In this document: positions 2,583-34,696 of the stretch, one piece after another
Layout of the letters: every line of letters starts with the position of its first letter
How positions within the stretch are numbered: position 1 is the first letter of the stretch
Source of the DNA: a virus
Direction: 5' to 3' (one strand)
Virus record (IMG/VR): IMGVR_UViG_3300042945_001784
Span: 16,808-80,807 of that record
Length of the DNA: 64,000 nucleotides
Translations under genes and position numbers: made by a program
Notes under the pieces: model-generated
Database searches by the model: none
What the model was told of the DNA's origin: nothing
What the model saw: only the letters and a program-made list of their open reading frames with translations

Positions 2583-3530
2583 ATGGACAACAAACTACCT
2601 AAAGTTCCTGAAAAAGCGCTTGAAGCTTTGAAGGATGGCATTCAATCTGTTCTTGATTCTAAAGATTGGACTGGTTTTCTTTCTGCTATACGGTGCATAC
2701 ATGACTATAGTTTCAACAATAAGTTGTTGATCATGATGGCGCAGCACAAGCGTGGATGGGCGTTTAGTCCATTTGTTGCTGGTGCCAGGAAGTGGAACGA
2801 TAAGTTCAATCGGCAACTTAAGAAAGGTGAGTTCACCAATCCCATCTGGATCCTTGCTCCAGTACTCATTAAGAAGACAGATGAGAATGGACAGGTCCTC
2901 TGTCGTGCGGATGGAACGCCAGAGCAAGTGCCGATTCGCTTTCGTGGGGTGAAGGTCTATGACCATCATCAAACAGAGGGAGATCCAATCCCTGAACCAG
3001 ACACCACTGGCATGATGGCACAGCTAGAGGGAGACATTTCCTCGCATGTCATGGATGGTATGGTTGCTGTCGCAAAGCGCCGTAGCGTTGAGGTGCAGCG
3101 TTGTTCTGCAGCTGATCTTGGTTCTGCTTTAGGCCGCTGCTGGTTTGCCAATCAGGGCCGCGCCAGCAAGATTGAGATCAGCTCTGAAATCAATGAGATC
3201 ACTGCTGTCAGTGTCATGGCTCATGAGCTAGGTCACGCCATCCTTCACAACCGTGATGAGTACCAGGAACATGACTCTTCCTCCATCAAAGAACTGGAAG
3301 CTGAGTCAGTTGCTTATCTGGTTTGTTCTCATTACGGCGTGGATCTTGGTCGTCGCAGCTTTCAGTACATTGTTCATCACAACACTGCATCTGATGATGT
3401 CGTTGCAGATCTCTTGAAGTCCGGTGATCGGATTTTCCGTGCCTACGAGGAAATCATTAAGACCACTGATGACTACCTCACGACAGAGCCAGCTCCAGTG
3501 GCTCGACAATTGTTTGTTAGTACTTTATAA
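2583..3530 (+). CDS. ArdC-like ssDNA-binding domain plus zincin metallopeptidase (antirestriction-type protein)
   Basis: N-terminal 'HDYSFNNKLLI...VAGARKW...RQLKKGE...IWILAP...FRGVKVYD..QTEG'; C-terminal HELGHAILH and ELEAESVAYLVCSHYG. Confidence 0.8.
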   Translation: MDNKLPKVPEKALEALKDGIQSVLDSKDWTGFLSAIRCIHDYSFNNKLLIMMAQHKRGWAFSPFVAGARKWNDKFNRQLKKGEFTNPIWILAPVLIKKTDENGQVLCRADGTPEQVPIRFRGVKVYDHHQTEGDPIPEPDTTGMMAQLEGDISSHVMDGMVAVAKRRSVEVQRCSAADLGSALGRCWFANQGRASKIEISSEINEITAVSVMAHELGHAILHNRDEYQEHDSSSIKELEAESVAYLVCSHYGVDLGRRSFQYIVHHNTASDDVVADLLKSGDRIFRAYEEIIKTTDDYLTTEPAPVARQLFVSTL

Positions 3531-7347: not shown

Positions 7348-8481
7348 TTACTTAGATTCAACTTGGAAAGGACCACCATATCCTGTTCCTTTCAAGCGAT
7401 GTTTAGATTCATCGTATCCATATTGACGCAAGCTTTGCTCTAGCCCACTGTAATCACTTCCTCTAAAGCGATCTACAACAGGATCAATCACATAATCTGT
7501 GACAACATCTGCAAGTTTTTCTGCGCCGCGACCAGCTAATTCTCCAATAACTCCTTCAGTAAAACCACGCGTTGCTGGTGGTCCTGCATAAGTTGCAAAT
7601 GCGCCACCAAGTAAACGACGGCCTTTAGGTAAACCTAGCTCACCTGCTAATCTAAAAGCGTTACGAGTTGCCAATGCTTCTTCTGCAAGCGTGTGTCTTA
7701 TGCCAGGAGAAGTTACATTGCTTAAAAGTCCTTCAAGTCCAGCTTGCCATAAACTTCTGTTTTCATCTTGAGAATTTCTGCCTGCACTTAAACCACTGAT
7801 AGTTCCTGGTTCAATATACTGTTTTCCATATCGTAAGTTGCGTTCTTTTTGCGCAAGACCTGGATCAGCAAAGTTAAGAGCGTGTCCAAACTCATGCAAA
7901 GTAACCGGTGCTGAATATCTAGCATAATTTTTTAGTTGTGGTTTTTCATCCATTAATTTATTGAAACGTTCATCTAACTCAGGTTTGCTGCCCCAAGGTA
8001 GGCTTTGAAGATCCTGCATAATAGGTGATATTTTTTCATCGAATTTTCCAAGATCTTGCATGTATTTTGCACGTGCTTCATCAGACAAAACTCCTTGAAC
8101 ATTGACACGATTTTCATTATCGAAAAAAGCATCAGGATGGTCTATAAAACCGGTAAAGTTTACAGGTGTTCTTAGTTTTGGATTAAGAAACTCTTGTACT
8201 TTTTCAATGGTTGATAAAGGAACTTGTGTTGCAGGATTTGCTCTTAATTTATTGAGTGTTTCACTTCCTAATGAAGCTGATTGATTTAGTAAAGACCGAG
8301 CTGCGTTAACTCCTGTAACTTCTCTTGCAAAATTCTGTGCTTCTTCTACTTTTCTACGGTTTACAGACTGTCCTACATAAGGACTATCAGCTCCACCAGG
8401 GAGCAGCCCTCCCGCTAAGTTTTTATCTACGGCTCCATAAACTTTTTGAAAGCCGCCGCTTAGCCAGTTAGGAAAAGGCAT
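7348..8481 (-). CDS. Probable virion protein with HExxH zinc-peptidase motif
   Basis: TLHEFGHAL followed by EEALATRNA; Gly/Ala-rich flanks. Confidence 0.55.
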   Translation of the reverse strand: MPFPNWLSGGFQKVYGAVDKNLAGGLLPGGADSPYVGQSVNRRKVEEAQNFAREVTGVNAARSLLNQSASLGSETLNKLRANPATQVPLSTIEKVQEFLNPKLRTPVNFTGFIDHPDAFFDNENRVNVQGVLSDEARAKYMQDLGKFDEKISPIMQDLQSLPWGSKPELDERFNKLMDEKPQLKNYARYSAPVTLHEFGHALNFADPGLAQKERNLRYGKQYIEPGTISGLSAGRNSQDENRSLWQAGLEGLLSNVTSPGIRHTLAEEALATRNAFRLAGELGLPKGRRLLGGAFATYAGPPATRGFTEGVIGELAGRGAEKLADVVTDYVIDPVVDRFRGSDYSGLEQSLRQYGYDESKHRLKGTGYGGPFQVESK

Positions 8482-8510
8482 TGTATTTTTTAACCTACTT
8501 TAATTTTAAA

Positions 8511-8621
8511 TTACTTTTTCTTTCCGCCGTTCTTAGCTTTACGAGCATTGGCATTACCGCTATTCTGCTTAGCATTTTGCTTAGCAGTTGCAGCGGATTT
8601 TTTGTTCTTTGGTTTAGACAT
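8511..8621 (-). CDS. Small basic protein (36 aa)
   Basis: MSKPKNKKSAATAKQNAKQNSGNANARKAKNGGKKK; start overlaps the upstream stop (TAATG). Confidence 0.55.
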   Translation of the reverse strand: MSKPKNKKSAATAKQNAKQNSGNANARKAKNGGKKK

Positions 8622-9931
8622 TAGCGGCTAATTTCCTCCCAATCTAGAGAAGCATGGATGTCTGCACCGCTAACATCAGATGCTGCAATTAAAGTCAGCT
8701 CGTAGGGTGTAGATGTAAAAGGTTCTCTTTCTAATTGGAAAGTAAAAAGAGCTTCCTTAAGAATGTCAACTGGAGTAGATCCTTGGTTAGCGCCAATGGT
8801 ATAACCGCTGGCTAAGATTCGTCCAGTTCCTTGGGTAAATCCTGTACCCGTAATGTTATATTCTACTGCAGAATTAGTTCCTGCACTAACCCACGTTCCG
8901 CCTGTTGTTGTACCACTTGCAACAACTCTCCAGTTATATGTTGCATTGTTTGTAATCCCAATCAATGAAAGAGCTGTCAAAATAACAATGGCATCTAAAC
9001 GATTAGGAGATGTTTTAAGCCGGATTGACGCCAGGGGGTAGTAGGTTCCTGCTGTTGTTAGGTCAACAGGAGTTGTAATTGGAGTACCAATTGCTTGTTG
9101 TACGCCCCTAAGTTCGTAGCCTCCTTCGGAAACAACAGAAGAACAAACTTGTTTTAATGTACTGTTACTTGCAGTTGTTCCTGTGTTTTCAATCTCATAG
9201 CGTAAAGGTAAAGATGCTGTTGTGATATAGGTTGAAGTAATTATATTGGCGTGATGGAAAGAATGGCAGTGAATAAATACACCATTGATAACAAAACCTA
9301 AGCGAACTGTTCCTAAACCAAGCCACTCAATATCCATCCAAAAGATCTGTGCTTTTGTAATATCAAGAGTCAGTCCTGAAAGACCTTCACCATCTAATTT
9401 ATCTACGTTCCAGTTACTCTGGGCTACACGTGTTTCTGTTACGGATCCAGTGACGCTGCTTCTTTCAACAAAAGATAAGGTTGAACCATTTAATTCAACG
9501 TAGATACCATTATCATTTCCAAAGTATCCAACACGTTGACGTAAATTTTGTTTTGCAGGATTGAATACAAAAGTATTTAATACAAGAAGACTTTTACCTG
9601 GTTGGTATGAGAAAACCTTAGTAGTTTCTCGATATACTTTTGATCCTGACGTTGTTGTTACGTTTAAATTAACTAAACCTTCGCTAGTACTGAACGATGT
9701 TGTCCCACCACTTGCTGTATTTATTGCCCACAAACCATTATCGTTATAGCGATGGCTAGAATCAAACAAAGTTAAGGGTTGTGACATCCTTAACCGTCCA
9801 AAAGCATCACTTGCTATTGAACTGCCTCCACCTGATGGAGCTGTTATCGCTACATTTAGTACCTGATCATCAGGATTTAGTACTTTGACAACCTCATAAA
9901 GATTGTCATCTCTTTCAATAACGGTTGCCAT
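8621..9931 (-). CDS. Probable virion structural protein
   Basis: Thr/Ser-rich beta protein with 'DAFGRLRMSQPLTLFDS' and 'YQPGKS...WLGLGTVR.GF' motifs common in phage structural genes. Confidence 0.65.
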   Translation of the reverse strand: MATVIERDDNLYEVVKVLNPDDQVLNVAITAPSGGGSSIASDAFGRLRMSQPLTLFDSSHRYNDNGLWAINTASGGTTSFSTSEGLVNLNVTTTSGSKVYRETTKVFSYQPGKSLLVLNTFVFNPAKQNLRQRVGYFGNDNGIYVELNGSTLSFVERSSVTGSVTETRVAQSNWNVDKLDGEGLSGLTLDITKAQIFWMDIEWLGLGTVRLGFVINGVFIHCHSFHHANIITSTYITTASLPLRYEIENTGTTASNSTLKQVCSSVVSEGGYELRGVQQAIGTPITTPVDLTTAGTYYPLASIRLKTSPNRLDAIVILTALSLIGITNNATYNWRVVASGTTTGGTWVSAGTNSAVEYNITGTGFTQGTGRILASGYTIGANQGSTPVDILKEALFTFQLEREPFTSTPYELTLIAASDVSGADIHASLDWEEISR

Positions 9932-9933
9932 GA

Positions 9934-10272
9934 TTACTGCGCCGAGAAGCTAAGACGTACAATAGCATTTGTTCCGCCAGTTTCTTTGTAGAAGTTAGCG
10001 CGAACAAATTTCACAGGGATGTTGCTGGCTTTATAAACAAAGGTTCCGTTCTCAGTTATGGTATTTGAAATGATGGGTCCGTAGTGCGTTCCATCAATGC
10101 TGCCATCCAGTCGAACAACAACATTTGTATCAATATTGCTGACGGTAGCTACCAAAGAATAATTCTTGGTGGAGAAGTAATTGTTTTCATACACAGACAC
10201 AGGTGGCGTTGTTCCAGGCGCTGTTAGCTCTCCTGCGTTAAAGAACAACGTGTCCTGAAAATACGTAACCAC
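9934..10272 (-). CDS. Probable structural protein
   Basis: 112-aa beta-rich ORF ('VVVRLDGSIDG'). Confidence 0.55.
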   Translation of the reverse strand: MVTYFQDTLFFNAGELTAPGTTPPVSVYENNYFSTKNYSLVATVSNIDTNVVVRLDGSIDGTHYGPIISNTITENGTFVYKASNIPVKFVRANFYKETGGTNAIVRLSFSAQ

Positions 10273-10341
10273 TTCTTAAGACTCTTTTCTCCTTGCCATT
10301 CTAGAAGAAGTAAGTACAGTACACACGGTGCCCACCTTCTC

Positions 10342-13131: not shown

Positions 13132-13246
13132 GGCATAATGTTCAGTCTAAACATTCAACATTTAATGTCAAGTAATCATTGTTACTGTGCTTGACACCAC
13201 AGGCTAAGAACCTAGACTGCCACTGGCTTCTCAGCTCTCAGCTACA

Positions 13247-14306: not shown

Positions 14307-14330
14307 TTGCACACCACGACATTACTCACC

Positions 14331-14927
14331 ATGGCTGACAAGCTTTCCCTGATCCAAATTGCTGAATCCATCCAGCACATCAGCTTTTTGAAGGATATGC
14401 CTGACATCCCTGAGGATGAGCGGGCCATGCTGGAGCAGCACCTTCACGATCTGGCTTCTCGCCAGGAGTCCAAGTTTGATGCCATCATCGGCATGATTAA
14501 AAAGTGTGATGCTTATATTGAAGCATTACAAACAGAGATGGATGAGATCAAACAAAACCTAGATGCATGGAAAAAGAACCGGGAAAAGATGGTTTCTATT
14601 GTTAAGTTTGCTTATCAACAGAATCTGATTGATAACAAGCCAACTGGTACTAAATATCAAGCTACGATTCGTAGAGTTAAGCCACGTCTTGTAGATAACT
14701 TTGAACACTGGGAGGAGGAAGATAAGACTGAGTTTGGTTTGCGTAAGACCACGACAATAACGCGCATTAAAGACAACACTGTTGTAGATGTAAAGCAAGA
14801 GGATTTACCTGATAAAGATCGGGTGCGTGATGCACTTGCTACAGATGACGGTTCAGCGCCAGCAGCAGCTCAACTTGTTCCTGGATTCTCCTTTGTTTAT
14901 GAGCGTTGTAAAAGGTTAAGTACCTGA
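14331..14927 (+). CDS. Siphovirus Gp157-like coiled-coil protein
   Basis: 'ESKFDAIIGMIKKCDAYIEALQTEMDEIK' coiled coil and 'PDKDRVRDAL...AQLV' C-terminus. Confidence 0.6.
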   Translation: MADKLSLIQIAESIQHISFLKDMPDIPEDERAMLEQHLHDLASRQESKFDAIIGMIKKCDAYIEALQTEMDEIKQNLDAWKKNREKMVSIVKFAYQQNLIDNKPTGTKYQATIRRVKPRLVDNFEHWEEEDKTEFGLRKTTTITRIKDNTVVDVKQEDLPDKDRVRDALATDDGSAPAAAQLVPGFSFVYERCKRLST

Positions 14928-14969
14928 TCACACTTTTAAGTTCCAACAACAACAACAACAAATTCAACA

Positions 14970-15317
14970 ATGACTCAAGAACACCCGATTACACCGCCCC
15001 CTGAGCTGGTGGAAAAGTGGCTGGAGAACACTTGCTCGCATGACTGCATCGGAGCTTACCCGGCGAACTACGAGCAGCTCATCTGCACCCAAGCCGCCCG
15101 CTGGGGCGCTGATCAGGAGCTGGAGGCGTGCTGTGAGTGGCTTAAAGCCAAAGAGTGGATTCACCACGAATTCAGCGACGAACTCCGCGCCGCCCGTCGC
15201 CCCAAGCCGCCGAGCTTGAAGGAGCAAGCGCTTGCAGTTTTAGACGACGCCTCAGATCGTCTTGATGCTGCTCACGAAAACATCATCCGCCGCGCACTGG
15301 AGCAACTCGATGGCTGA
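14970..15317 (+). CDS. Paralog family A mini-protein, copy 1
   Basis: HPITPPPEL...QAARWGADQELEACCEWL...RRPKPPSLKEQAL...IIRRALEQL. Confidence 0.75.
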   Translation: MTQEHPITPPPELVEKWLENTCSHDCIGAYPANYEQLICTQAARWGADQELEACCEWLKAKEWIHHEFSDELRAARRPKPPSLKEQALAVLDDASDRLDAAHENIIRRALEQLDG

Positions 15318-15831
15318 TTACACAGCAACGCCCAAGCAATGGGCCGAAATAGCGCATTGGTCTGATGAATACGGCTACGCTCCTCAAACCTGCATCCTTG
15401 AACTCCGCGCCAGGGTCAAGACGCTAGAAGATACGGTTCAAAAGCACATTGTCGAAACGAATTCAAACATTGTGGCTTTATTTAGCCGGGTTGAATCGTT
15501 AGAAGCTGCTGAACGCCAAGCATCAAAAGTCCACCAGATCAGCAAACCTCTGAAACTTACTGCAAAGCAACAGGCAGAGTTAAAGGCATTGCTGACGCCC
15601 GATTTTAGGGTTGGCATGACGCCAACTTCTACTTCAAACCAAGTTGGTAATTCGCTGGTGAATCAGGTAGCCCGTGCCATCGGTCGAGACGATGAACCCA
15701 TCAACTGGGAGGAAGAAGCCCGCGCTGCGATCCGCACGGTGGCCTTGTGGCTTAACGAAACTCCCTTTGATCTCTACCCCGGTGATCGCGGCATCATTGT
15801 CAATGCTCTTTATGACCAAGTAAATCAATGA
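15310..15831 (+). CDS. Modular hypothetical protein
   Basis: MADYTATPKQW...CILELRARV coiled coil plus a 'LVNQVARAI...EARAAIRTVALWL' module. Confidence 0.65.
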   Translation: MADYTATPKQWAEIAHWSDEYGYAPQTCILELRARVKTLEDTVQKHIVETNSNIVALFSRVESLEAAERQASKVHQISKPLKLTAKQQAELKALLTPDFRVGMTPTSTSNQVGNSLVNQVARAIGRDDEPINWEEEARAAIRTVALWLNETPFDLYPGDRGIIVNALYDQVNQ

Positions 15832-16010
15832 CTGACTTCAAATTTGTGCCACTAAACAGCCTTGAGAATCGCCTCGGTGATGCTCTTGGCCTTGCCATTG
15901 CCATGATCCGCGATCCAAGCGCCGTGGACAACAAAGCCATGGCTCAGATCGAGGCGCCATTCAAGGAATGGTGTGATGCTCTCGTTGATGGAGGTCTACT
16001 CAATGACTGA
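15828..16010 (+). CDS. Hypothetical protein
   Basis: Coupled ORF beginning at an ATGACTGA junction. Confidence 0.6.
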   Translation: MTDFKFVPLNSLENRLGDALGLAIAMIRDPSAVDNKAMAQIEAPFKEWCDALVDGGLLND

Positions 16011-16242
16011 CACCACCCCACTGAGCCCCGCCGCGCAGGCAGTGCTGGATGCCCTGCACACAGAAAACTCAACGGGTCCAGAGCGGTATTGGGCTCGTGC
16101 CAATGCCGTTGCCGCCCTGCGTGCTGCTGCGGATCAAGTAGTGCCAAAGTTTTGGCATGAGGACAACGACATTTACGGTGAAACAATGCAAGACGTGCGT
16201 CAAAACCTCCTCGCCATCGCCGCCGAGCTTGAAGCCCAGTAG
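16003..16242 (+). CDS. Hypothetical protein (family B, LSPAAQAVLDA...IAAELEAQ)
   Basis: Coupled start; its TAG stop lies inside a CCCAGTAGTC site. Confidence 0.7.
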   Translation: MTDTTPLSPAAQAVLDALHTENSTGPERYWARANAVAALRAAADQVVPKFWHEDNDIYGETMQDVRQNLLAIAAELEAQ

Positions 16243-16254
16243 TCAACATCACTA

Positions 16255-16428
16255 ATGCTCAAAGACATCACACGCTGTCACGGCACAGGCTGCCCCGCAA
16301 AGCAACATTGCCTCAGACACACTGCACCAATCCCAGACAATGTTCTCCTGTCATGGGCGGCAAACCTCAACTACGAGCGAGCGCACATCTGCGCTTACTA
16401 CATGCCCGCTACGCCCAAGACCCAGTAG
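16255..16428 (+). CDS. Small Cys-rich protein (57 aa), absent from the ORF track
   Basis: MLKDITRCHGTGCPAKQHCLRHTA...ICAYYMPATPKTQ; widespread 'DIT.C.G..CP....C.R' phage pattern. Confidence 0.75.
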   Translation: MLKDITRCHGTGCPAKQHCLRHTAPIPDNVLLSWAANLNYERAHICAYYMPATPKTQ

Positions 16429-16445
16429 TCCGATCAACTAACACC

Positions 16446-17144
16446 ATGACTGACCAATTTGTTAGCGCCAACAAAATGGTGCCGCCACGTGAGATTATTG
16501 AACAATGGGCTAATGAAAAGGATTACGACGAACGCGATTGGCTTTACGAGATCCACATAGCAAACTGTGCTGCTGCGTGGGGTGCTAACCAGCAACTAAT
16601 TGCAGATGCAAAGTGGCTGGATCACAATGCCTTGAATGAACCTCACCTAAGGATCACCCCAGTGGGAGAATCATTGAAGGAAGCGATGCGTCCAAAAAGT
16701 ATAAAGGAGCGGGCATTACACGATCTTCATACTGCTTATAACGCGGATCAAATTGATGACCTTGGGAGAAATTCAATGACTAACCAACAACACCCGATCA
16801 CCCCACCGCCGGAGCTGGTAGAGCAGTGGCGCGATTTGCCCGAGTTCACCGATGGGCGGCGAAAGATGATCATGGTCACTCTTTCAAGAGAAAAACTTCT
16901 AGACATCGCCACTCAAGCCGCCCGCTGGGGCGCTGATCAGGAGCTGGAGGCGTGTTGCCATCTGCTGCGACAGCAGGGGTTTGACGTGGTTGACGACCTT
17001 CGCGCGACCCGCCGCCCAAAACTGCCATCATTGAAGGAGCAGGCCCTGAGCGAGTTGAACCTGACTGCTGATCCCAACGGAGCCGAACTTTCACGAACCC
17101 AGGTTGAACTTATCCGCCGCGCATTAGAGCAACTCAATGACTGA
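16446..17144 (+). CDS. In-frame tandem of two family A units (second ATG at 16776)
   Basis: Divergent unit (AAAWGANQQL...RPKSIKERAL) fused to a canonical unit (MTNQQHPITPPPEL...). Confidence 0.65.
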   Translation: MTDQFVSANKMVPPREIIEQWANEKDYDERDWLYEIHIANCAAAWGANQQLIADAKWLDHNALNEPHLRITPVGESLKEAMRPKSIKERALHDLHTAYNADQIDDLGRNSMTNQQHPITPPPELVEQWRDLPEFTDGRRKMIMVTLSREKLLDIATQAARWGADQELEACCHLLRQQGFDVVDDLRATRRPKLPSLKEQALSELNLTADPNGAELSRTQVELIRRALEQLND

Positions 17145-17478
17145 GAAACACCCGATCACCCCACCGCCGGAGCTGCGTCGACTCTGGGCACAGCAAGCGC
17201 AACGCAAGAATCCACGCGATCCAGTGGCGTGGCAAGAGTACATCGCCGCCCAAGCCGCTCGCTGGGGCGCTGATCAGGAGCTGGAAGCGTGCTGTGAGTG
17301 GCTAGTAGTAGATGACTGGAAAAATGTAAGCGAGAACCTTCGCGCCTTCCGCCGCCCCAAGCCGCCGAGCTTGAAGCCCAGTAGTCCGACCCACTTCTAT
17401 TTAAATTCTGTTATAGTAAACAAGTTCCCGCTCTTTTTGATCGGGCAGATAGAGCCCAAGCCTCTGTCCAGTCCCTGA
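17137..17478 (+). CDS. Family A copy with chimeric, out-of-family 3' end (possible pseudogene)
   Basis: Homology stops after KPPSLK, where the sequence switches to the family B 3' end in a different frame. Confidence 0.6.
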   Translation: MTEKHPITPPPELRRLWAQQAQRKNPRDPVAWQEYIAAQAARWGADQELEACCEWLVVDDWKNVSENLRAFRRPKPPSLKPSSPTHFYLNSVIVNKFPLFLIGQIEPKPLSSP

Positions 17479-17647
17479 GGCTGGTTACGCTTGGGCCATC
17501 AATTAAGGGGACAACCCTGGACTGAGGTTGTCTTAAACGAAGTTCACCCATCAAAGTGTGCTCGCCCTTTATTGGTTACGCGTCAGGCAGACAGCCTGGA
17601 GGGCGGCCACGGTTCTGGAGGCGTCCGATAACGTCTCCCCGTTTTTT
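17422..17647 (+). ncRNA. Structured RNA, manA-motif-like
   Basis: Extended -10 TGTTATAGT (17409-17417); stems GCCCAAGC/GCTTGGGC, GACAACC/GGTTGTC, CGCCCT/AGGGCG, GGAGGCGT/ACGTCTCC then a T tract. The CAGATAGAG...CCTCT...CCATC layout recalls the cyanophage manA motif (from memory, unverified). Confidence 0.55.
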
Positions 17648-17653
17648 CCGCCA

Positions 17654-17824
17654 GTGAACCGTCGTCAACTCTGGCACCTCTGGGCAAAAGCACTCGGAGA
17701 AAAAACAGGACGGACAACCTCAGAAGCTGATCGGGTTGCCCTTATTCGTTCCGTTATTTTCTTAACTTATTTCTTAACCAATTGTTTCATTGTGGCTGGT
17801 GTCATTCGCCACTGGAACAATTGA
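17654..17824 (+). CDS. Conserved cyanophage-type small membrane protein
   Basis: 'WHLWAKALGEK...EAD.VA.IR...TN.FIVAGVIRHW'. Confidence 0.65.
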   Translation: MNRRQLWHLWAKALGEKTGRTTSEADRVALIRSVIFLTYFLTNCFIVAGVIRHWNN

Positions 17825-34536: not shown

Positions 34537-34621
34537 GGGAGCGTGGCGGAATTGGTATACGCTGCGGACTTAAAATCCGTTGGTCTCGACCTTGTGGGTT
34601 CAAGTCCCACCGCTCCTACCA
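34537..34621 (+). tRNA. trnL: tRNA-Leu(TAA)
   Basis: GGGAGCG/CGCTCCT acceptor, anticodon arm GCGGA-CTTAAAA-TCCGT, long variable arm, GGTTCAAGTCC, encoded CCA. Confidence 0.93.
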
Positions 34622-34622
34622 C

Positions 34623-34696
34623 CGGGATATAGCGCAGCTTGGTAGCGCATCTGCTTTGGGAGCAGAGGGCCGCAGGTTCGAATCCTGCTATCCCGA
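34623..34696 (+). tRNA. trnP: tRNA-Pro(TGG)
   Basis: CGGGATA/TATCCCG acceptor, TCTGC-TTTGGGA-GCAGA anticodon arm, GGTTCGAATCC; CCA not encoded. Confidence 0.93.

Follow-up and report, generated by a model that had tools for sequence, protein, structure and literature searches.

The nearest known phage example of a protein that combines a constant framework with variable segments appears to be gp38, the adhesin of T2/T6-type phages, whose specificity part, in the portion of the published account drawn on here, consists of hypervariable segments (HVS) placed between conserved glycine-rich motifs (GRM) (PMC3157838). A second described arrangement concerns gene content: in T4-type phages, short conserved border motifs known as PeSLs (promoter/stem-loops) are tied, in the excerpted accounts, to differences among closely related phages in which small ORFan genes have been inserted, deleted, or replaced (PMC2839356, PMC4122927). 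Here we analyze an array of small genes in the uncultured virus IMGVR_UViG_3300042945_001784 (IMG/VR; phage record of 80.8 kb, 94% complete). Positions 16,808 to 80,807 of the record form the 64,000-nucleotide window to which coordinates refer unless a relative is named. The array is a run of short, mostly overlapping plus-strand open reading frames (ORFs) at 14970-17478 that includes four copies of one family, PHROG 32006, in which constant blocks alternate with variable segments. We consider it likely, with a probability of roughly 0.7, that the array belongs to a horizontally acquired island of recombining small-protein cassettes, with the constant blocks serving as recombination homology and the variable segments as specificity parts in conflict.

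The design of the family is B1-V1-B2-V2-B3-V3-B4, four constant blocks (B) alternating with three variable segments (V). Its mosaic structure was studied in 91 loci plus the window, which gave 142 hidden Markov model (HMM) matches, 116 near-full-length copies, and 103 unique copies. Mean pairwise amino acid identity in these 103 copies is 0.76-0.84 for the blocks and 0.22-0.26 for the V segments, which are 11-28 residues long. Single linkage at 60% identity sorts the segments into 66 V1, 59 V2, and 60 V3 types that are unalignable with one another. The three segments of a protein are unlinked: their distance matrices are uncorrelated (Mantel r 0.015-0.019, with 65-96 of 300 permutations reaching the observed value), and among 46 pairs that share V1 (at least 80% identity) V2 is also shared (at least 60%) in four and V3 in five, with symmetric results when the other segments are taken as the starting point. 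A second sample, 89 additional unique copies taken from contigs of metagenomes, again showed the segments to be unlinked (r = 0.06, -0.01, and -0.03), and V2 is shared there in 1 of 19 V1-sharing pairs. Individual genes illustrate the reassortment. One copy at locus L014 carries a V1 of the type found in copy 3 of the window, the V2 of copy 1, and a V3 of a third type, and a copy at L059 carries the V2 of copy 3 flanked by a V1 and a V3 known from elsewhere.

Pairwise identity within V segments is bimodal, and half-identical chimeras are absent among pairs of intermediate identity (0 of 139 for V1, 0 of 349 for V2, and 0 of 103 for V3), which indicates that V segments move as whole units. Within V types, the ratio of nonsynonymous to synonymous polymorphism (pN/pS) is 0.13-0.17 at a pS of 0.31-0.45, a signature of purifying selection, and the corresponding ratio for the blocks is 0.23-0.29. 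The V segments are discrete alleles, not hypermutating loops.

Block DNA identity is 0.762 between copies at the same locus (33 pairs) and 0.793 between copies at different loci (5,220 pairs), and the within-locus pairs have a single shared V type in all. Because block identity is not raised within loci, gene conversion between copies of the array was considered and ruled out. Arrays look like collections from a pool common to phages, not like local duplications. The guanine-cytosine (GC) content of the family is 0.583 +/- 0.029 irrespective of the GC content of its context, which ranges from 0.42 to 0.68. This independence from context, together with the lack of within-locus likeness, suggests that the cassette pool moves between very different phages faster than it drifts.

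Exchange tracts can be seen around two ORFan genes, g173 and g60, that lie 3' of copy 1 and travel together. The g173-g60 module recurs in numerous other contigs, at 87-98% DNA identity over the common tract in the 14 distinct contigs mapped, and always 3' of a family copy whose V segments are different. On its left side, the tract of high identity starts within B4 in nine of these 14 loci and 2-11 nucleotides (nt) before B4 in two more, and its right edge coincides in nine of 14 with a 14-nt junction at the start of the next gene, g79. In L119, 94 nt that are 98% identical to B2-V2 of copy 3 adjoin DNA that is 97% identical to the end of copy 1 plus g173. The observed tracts end in B4 and at the ATGACTGA-containing gene junction, and recombination at constant blocks, between phages rather than within the array, is well supported. 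The blocks are 24-55 nt long, and homology of this length is within the range usable by phage recombinases.

The blocks are also conserved at the level of codons. Across 43 block columns with a conserved residue, codon homozygosity reaches 0.67, where codon usage in the variable parts of these genes predicts 0.33. Preferred codons are position-specific (successive prolines use CCC, CCA, and CCG; one alanine is GCG in 94 of 101 copies, one leucine TTG in 83 of 97, and one serine AGC in 88 of 98), so simple codon bias is no explanation. For six neighboring gene families at the same loci, observed homozygosity is 0.37-0.61 against 0.35-0.52 expected. These results bear on several proposals of an initial annotation of the window. 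The framework-plus-variable-segment design that it described agrees with the identities of blocks and V segments, and two of the checks that it suggested gave positive results, mosaicism through the unlinkage seen in 103 copies and again in 89, and synonymous-site conservation through block codon homozygosity above that of neighboring genes. Diversification by recombination between blocks stands insofar as V segments are reassorted and crossovers lie in blocks, but the exchange is not intra-array (block identity 0.76 within loci vs 0.79 between them). Hypervariability in the sense of hypermutation is not borne out, the V segments being discrete types under purifying selection.

PHROG 32006 is large and was found in viral or probably viral DNA alone; lakes and estuaries are among the waters in which it is common. 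At least 8,000 scored candidates match the family; at 50% identity there are 2,518 clusters at a threshold of E <= 1e-3 and 1,627 at E <= 1e-10, and at least 590 viral stretches were confirmed to carry it. Among 50,697 phage records its cultured carriers are three phages isolated on Synechococcus, S-CBS2 (gp065), S-H1, and S-RIP1, each with one copy annotated as "hypothetical protein." A survey of 185,579 species, one genome each, returned 11 contigs of metagenome-assembled genomes (MAGs) of assorted assigned taxa and no isolate; we read these contigs as binned phage DNA. Two or more family-matching stretches occur in 29 of 80 viral and 21 of 80 metagenome loci (maximum 5 and 6), many of them partial fragments; some of the loci counted are duplicates, and some are truncated by the end of a contig. 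In the window and in S-CBS2, S-H1, and S-RIP1, family genes lie among small ORFs of replication/recombination modules, and in the window the neighbors encode a single-stranded DNA-binding protein (SSB), a Gam-like protein, an exonuclease, and a primase. The proteins are about 115 amino acids long and acidic (median isoelectric point 4.8, median net charge -8.7). V1, V2, and V3 are each acidic, B3 is strongly basic (+3.9), and B1 and B3 are proline-rich. A literature search on the family motifs and the topic, with supplementary files outside the search, found no paper on the family. The library entry for PHROG 32006 is silent on function, modular build, and arrays; the account given here of its mosaic behavior, codon-conserved blocks, and arrays comes from the present analyses.

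In the window, matches to the family HMM (131 positions) lie at 14955-15311, 16437-16760, 16773-17141, and 17134-17379, and tblastn with copy 1 against the whole record returned those four places and none other. Copy 1 (14970-15317, plus strand, as are all array features) encodes 115 amino acids and is intact (HMM 9-129); it matches PHROG 32006 with E 6.1e-31, residues 1-113 aligning with positions 2-112 of the 116-position profile. Copies 2 and 3 are one 232-residue, two-domain ORF (16446-17144), because no stop codon separates them, and this in-frame fusion matches PHROG 32006 over two stretches (E 4.2e-31). Its first half, copy 2 (16446-16775), is divergent, has a GC content of 0.46, and lacks B4, its HMM match ending at position 115; its second half, copy 3 (16776-17144), is intact (HMM 12-130). 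Copy 4 (17137-17478; PHROG 32006 E 1.6e-21) is truncated to B1-V1-B2-V2-B3 (HMM 13-98), lacks V3 and B4, and ends in 30 residues of out-of-frame read-through that starts within an exact 26-nt repeat. The PHROG 32006 matches of copy 1, the fused ORF, and copy 4 span almost the whole profile, and the full seven-part architecture is present in copies 1 and 3. At the DNA level, a repeat finder identified the direct-repeat families D1 (80 nt), D2 (62 nt), and D3 (56 nt), each in three copies and separated from one another by unrelated DNA, and copies 1 and 3 share a mismatch-free run of 41 nt within D1 (hand count).

The remaining array genes are short. The g173 ORFan (15310-15831, 173 amino acids) overlaps the stop codon of copy 1 and has no significant match in Pfam, PHROG, NCBIfam, or PADLOC; sub-threshold matches are to Pfam Nsp1_C (E 0.043), NCBIfam dcm (E 0.003; 17 bits against a cut-off of 100.65), and PADLOC DruM (E 0.0025). 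Its companion g60 (15828-16010, 60 amino acids) is joined to it by an ATGA overlap. The g79-like gene (16003-16242, 79 amino acids) belongs to a second modular family, with 76 bits against an HMM of the neighbor cluster. The cysteine-rich g57 ORFan (16255-16428, 57 amino acids) has no family match in Pfam, PHROG, NCBIfam, or PADLOC, and at its 3' end it has the CCCAGTAGTC gene-end motif that is also present in g79 and in the copy 4 scar.

The repeat finder also detected the 14-nt junction motif at five gene starts. For this CAATGACT junction, CAATGACTGA is exact at 15826, 16001, and 17135 and has one mismatch at 14968, 16444, and 16774. With up to one mismatch, CAATGACTGA occurs 14 times in the 64 kb, where 5.6 +/- 2.3 would be expected and none of 100 shuffled sequences has as many, and six of the 14 matches lie at gene starts within the 2.2-kb stretch of the array. 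Read by eye, the junction is dual-coding: the (N/D)-D-stop codons that end one gene contain the ATG-ACT-GA of the next, which explains why unrelated genes here begin M-T-(D/E).

The second modular family has members of about 80 amino acids. In 62 of 92 loci it occurs close to PHROG 32006 copies (median distance 195 nt), the usual gene order being a family copy and then a g79-like gene. Its three blocks (0.70-0.74 identity) and two variable segments (0.19-0.20 identity) repeat the same type of build, and the variable segments are again unlinked (r = 0.03). The two families have no detectable homology (hhalign probability 0.5%), and the g79-like family has no Pfam or PHROG match beyond a weak one to PHROG 36038 (E 0.006). 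Linkage of V types between adjacent family and g79-like genes could be compared in 11 usable pairs.

The two families meet in the 26-nt repeat (D7, 100% identity), one copy of which forms the 3' end of the g79-like gene (16219-16244), while the other lies in another reading frame in B3 of copy 4 (17361-17386). With up to two mismatches, its 16-nt core (17361-17376 and 16219-16234) is found in 101 of 122 family copies, as part of B3, and, in a different frame, in the C-terminal block at 37 of 96 g79-like gene ends, and in no other place on the plus strand of 823 kb (91 loci). This cross-frame 16-mer could reflect chance, out-of-frame borrowing, or a shared DNA-level motif. Given the core in B3 and in g79-like gene ends, and given the usual gene order, copy 4 would be explained by a deletion between short repeats, and the simplest reading of its scar is a deletion that joined B3 to the end of a g79-like gene. 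In-frame fusions are rare in the sampled loci, where one other was found (L023, a full domain plus a 23-residue fragment); in the large library roughly 20 of the best 150 matches have two or three matched stretches (count by eye). Isolated N- or C-terminal family fragments lie beside full copies at L025 3099-3358, L010 4047-4193, L036 1313-1489, L045 6548-6724, and other loci, and such fragments could be decay products or segment reservoirs.

The array and the non-coding DNA 3' of it form an accessory island (14929-17607) at a site between the Gam-like gene and a conserved hairpin. In blastn comparison with the closest relative, L098, homology ends at 14928 and restarts at 17608, with 36 bp between the two points in L098; when the alignment is read by eye, left-hand homology reaches about 14943. 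DNA identity to L098 is about 91% left of the island and 82% right of it. The 290-amino-acid gene upstream has 12 relatives in IMG/VR (83-97% amino acid identity, about six distinct versions), and every array gene is missing in all 11 that could be evaluated, the twelfth locus (L106) ending too early. In other relatives, 36-900 bp of unrelated DNA lie at or beside the site. The GC content of the island is 0.54 against 0.45 for the window. A host origin of the GC-rich island was considered and ruled out, since the family is found in no isolate genome and its GC content is constant across phage backgrounds. The island is probably horizontally acquired and lies in the replication/recombination module of an uncultured tailed aquatic phage of about 81 kb. 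The copy 1 protein is recorded, letter-identical, on 30 contigs, a number that makes a one-off chimera unlikely.

At the left edge of the island, just 5' of copy 1, lies a (CAA)6 microsatellite (14944-14961; Tandem Repeats Finder, six copies, 100% matches). The left-flank gene (14307-14927, plus strand) is weakly Gam-like or Sipho_Gp157-like (PHROG 253, E 2.7e-6; PF05565, E 7e-5, under the cut-off) and is kept in relatives at 86-96% amino acid identity. The right border is a GC-rich hairpin followed by a T-run (17617-17638, plus strand), terminator-like, in DNA that is common to relatives and kept in L098. It is followed by a conserved small gene of 56 codons (17654-17824, plus strand), whose GTG start was inferred from relatives and which is supported by tblastn matches and a 56-residue ORF in L102; its protein is hydrophobic, and the DNA at 17679-17821 shares 71% identity with DNA of the T4-like Synechococcus phage metaG-MbCM1 that carries no annotation. 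A search against Rfam returned no RNA family for the island or for the non-coding DNA at its 3' end. The predicted fold of 17470-17660, which covers that end and the border hairpin, is somewhat more stable than those of shuffled sequences, a weak signal (z = -2.1, equaled by 7 of 200 shuffles), and a scan with a sigma-70-type consensus found no plus-strand promoter-like site within the island.

With regard to the array itself, the initial annotation agrees with these data on most counts. HMM, tblastn, and PHROG 32006 place the four family copies at the starts it gave (14970, 16446, 16776, and 17137), the D1-D3 repeats match the near-identical DNA blocks separated by unrelated segments that it reported, and Tandem Repeats Finder returned its (CAA)6 tract. 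It called the region GC-richer than its flanks, as is the case (0.52-0.60 within the island, 0.41-0.46 in the flanks), and since the whole array is missing in close relatives, its content is not fixed among them, as had been anticipated. Two gene models must be revised: the 16446 and 16776 copies are a single ORF rather than separate genes, and the copy at 17137 is not a full one. The common junction was assigned to five genes, all of which bear the motif, but a sixth start, at 16446, does too.

At least two further indels relative to L098 occur within the same 19 kb, so the island is one of several hyperplastic spots. One of these indels (7348-10275) holds two minus-strand genes, including a 436-amino-acid gene (8621-9931) whose product is 66-73% identical to the "virion structural protein" of many cyanomyoviruses and of Puniceispirillum phage HMO-2011. 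At another such spot, about 1.5 kb of L098 (6239-7776) is absent from the window at 13161/13209. The relative represented by L068 and L104, a single 58-kb contig, lacks the island at this site but has two copies of the family some 10 kb 5' of the 290-amino-acid gene, so the family sits at different sites in related phages. Elsewhere in the window, a 315-amino-acid ORF (2583-3530) weakly matches the "anti-restriction protein" PHROG 7245 (E 1e-7), and two adjacent plus-strand tRNA genes lie at 34537-34696 (Rfam, 58 and 71 bits).

Taken together, these observations fit a model in which the island is a run of short cassettes coupled in translation, and one virus-only family supplies four of these. 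V segments reassort almost freely among phages, as whole units, and arrays are assembled from already-diverged cassettes, out of a pool common to phages that differ widely in GC content. Arrays also decay, here through one fusion and one short-repeat deletion. The 24-55-nt blocks may serve as recombination homology, probably by way of the phage's own adjacent recombination genes, and as protein they may form a common scaffold or bind a conserved partner, with the acidic V segments forming a specificity surface. The proteins would then act in phage-host conflict (counter-defense or host-factor binding) or in phage-phage conflict, with many specificity types maintained. Many discrete types, purifying selection, free reassortment, and dispensability are what is expected of a specificity protein that faces polymorphic partners, and the family looks like a shared kit of specificity parts exchanged by phages.

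Several observations weigh against this interpretation or limit its reach. Family copies have no match in Pfam, NCBIfam, or PADLOC, the best match of the family profile to sequences in the PDB has an E of 0.55, and the ESM Atlas structure neighbors above a TM score of 0.5 are unnamed viral clusters. Loci were gathered with peptide patterns, two of them in constant blocks, which inflates the amino acid identity of the blocks but not their codon identity. The sample consists of diverged relatives, near-identical records of the phage lying outside it, and exchange breakpoints were mapped directly for the g173-g60 module, those elsewhere being deduced from the unlinkage of segments. Block codon conservation could reflect a recent sweep or a function of the DNA or RNA instead of ongoing homogenization. 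As for the host, the cyanophage label is plausible, since the cultured carriers of the family are Synechococcus phages and the 436-amino-acid gene of the neighboring indel is 66% identical to proteins of many cyanomyoviruses; on the other side, the phage DNA polymerase has no cultured relative above 45% identity and psbA was not found in the phage record.

Other explanations account for parts of these data. It is very improbable that the array consists of ordinary tandem paralogs diverging by point mutation, or of targets of hypermutation by a diversity-generating retroelement (DGR), without segment exchange. Duplication and divergence also yield, at first sight, tandem copies with conserved and variable parts, but here the V segments are unlinked with symmetric sharing, block identity is not elevated within arrays, and V segments form discrete types of varying length. 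The DGR was ruled out in a separate search: the reverse transcriptase domain PF00078 has no match in the 80.8-kb record (the same search matched in 3 of 14 control genomes), and the repeat finder returned constant blocks and junctions alone, with no template/variable repeat pair. A less remote, though still unlikely, explanation is that the blocks are conserved because the DNA or RNA itself is functional, either as selected recombination substrates ("evolvability" linkers, even across families) or as a regulatory or structural element. Position-specific codons that include rare ones (Ala GCG, Leu TTG, Ser AGC) speak for this, as does the 16-mer that B3 shares, in another frame, with the unrelated g79-like family and with nothing else on the searched strand, and neighboring genes are without such conservation. 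However, the blocks are strongly conserved as protein too, several of their third positions vary freely (e.g., Ala81, Leu144, and Ala176), the island has no Rfam match, and the cross-frame 16-mer could be chance or an old out-of-frame borrowing.

Two further alternatives accept the exchange of segments and differ in what the proteins do. The cassettes may be selfish or neutral passengers of hyperplastic regions that spread by easy recombination, their V segments having no specificity function. The dispensability of the island, the fragments, fusion, and truncation seen in arrays, and the other indels relative to L098 in the same 19-kb stretch are all compatible with this, but purifying selection on V types and blocks, maintenance of the family in thousands of clusters, and its persistence, as one copy each, in three cultured phages that are of different types make it the least credible of the functional options, distinctly improbable, and we rank it third. 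Second, and doubtful in its turn, comes action on the phage's own replication/recombination machinery or on competing phages (exclusion or partner-specific regulation) rather than on host defenses. This option would account for the constant location beside SSB, primase/helicase, exonuclease, RusA, and Gam-like genes and for the co-occurrence with a second modular family; yet the proteins are homologous to no factor of replication or recombination, and V types show no link to the phage backbone, the GC content of the family being independent of its context. Counter-defense or host-factor binding ranks first, as the single most probable activity though at somewhat less than even odds, and is a matter of inference only. 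Small acidic nuclease inhibitors such as T7 gp5.9 occupy comparable positions, which offers a lead rather than evidence.

A broader and more tentative hypothesis, which we hold possible but would not bet on, is that of a combinatorial system of specificity cassettes common to aquatic phages, in which the V modules of at least two co-located families are balanced, long-lived specificity alleles, the blocks and dual-coding junctions are kept as nucleotide-level linkers, and any phage can re-deal counter-defense or host-factor binders in mixed infection. If true, coding DNA would be under second-order selection for evolvability in phage lineages that differ strongly in GC content and morphology. 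In environmental phages, the small early and middle genes are mostly ORFans that offer no handle for study. This family has a readable design, with three reassorting segments, nucleotide-conserved linkers, a partner family of like build, and single copies in three cultured Synechococcus phages, so the generation and exchange of specificity by phages in conflicts with hosts or other phages become directly testable. The family also offers a natural case for coding sequence conserved as a recombination substrate and, even if its function proves trivial, a useful means of tracing gene flow among phages that differ greatly in base composition.

Among known systems, the target proteins of DGRs resemble this family in their localized hypervariability on a conserved scaffold in phage genes. 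Antigenic variation of the pilE/pilS type relies on constant and variable mini-cassettes, with silent partial copies beside full ones. The array is similar in having partial, apparently silent copies next to full ones (copy 4, and fragments in relatives), but it gives no sign of donor-to-expression-site conversion within the genome, exchange taking place between genomes. The island recalls PeSL cassettes, to the extent that the excerpted accounts describe them, in that it is an indel beside a conserved hairpin and its cassettes share a junction motif; unlike the PeSL, which those accounts present as a non-coding promoter/stem-loop, the junction here is a dual-coding stop/start, and the main crossovers lie inside genes, in coding blocks. 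The likeness to gp38, within the cited portion of that work, is in design alone, both being small proteins in which conserved motifs alternate with hypervariable segments. Membership in the gp38 adhesin family finds no support in the searches, which gave no Pfam match and PHROG 32006 as the sole PHROG match. Whereas gp38 is a virion tail-fiber adhesin that binds receptors, the family described here is encoded among replication genes, is acidic with a basic block, and has three segments that are statistically unlinked across about 190 copies. It does not belong to the gp38 adhesins, nor probably to the PeSL cassettes, and it is not a virion protein.

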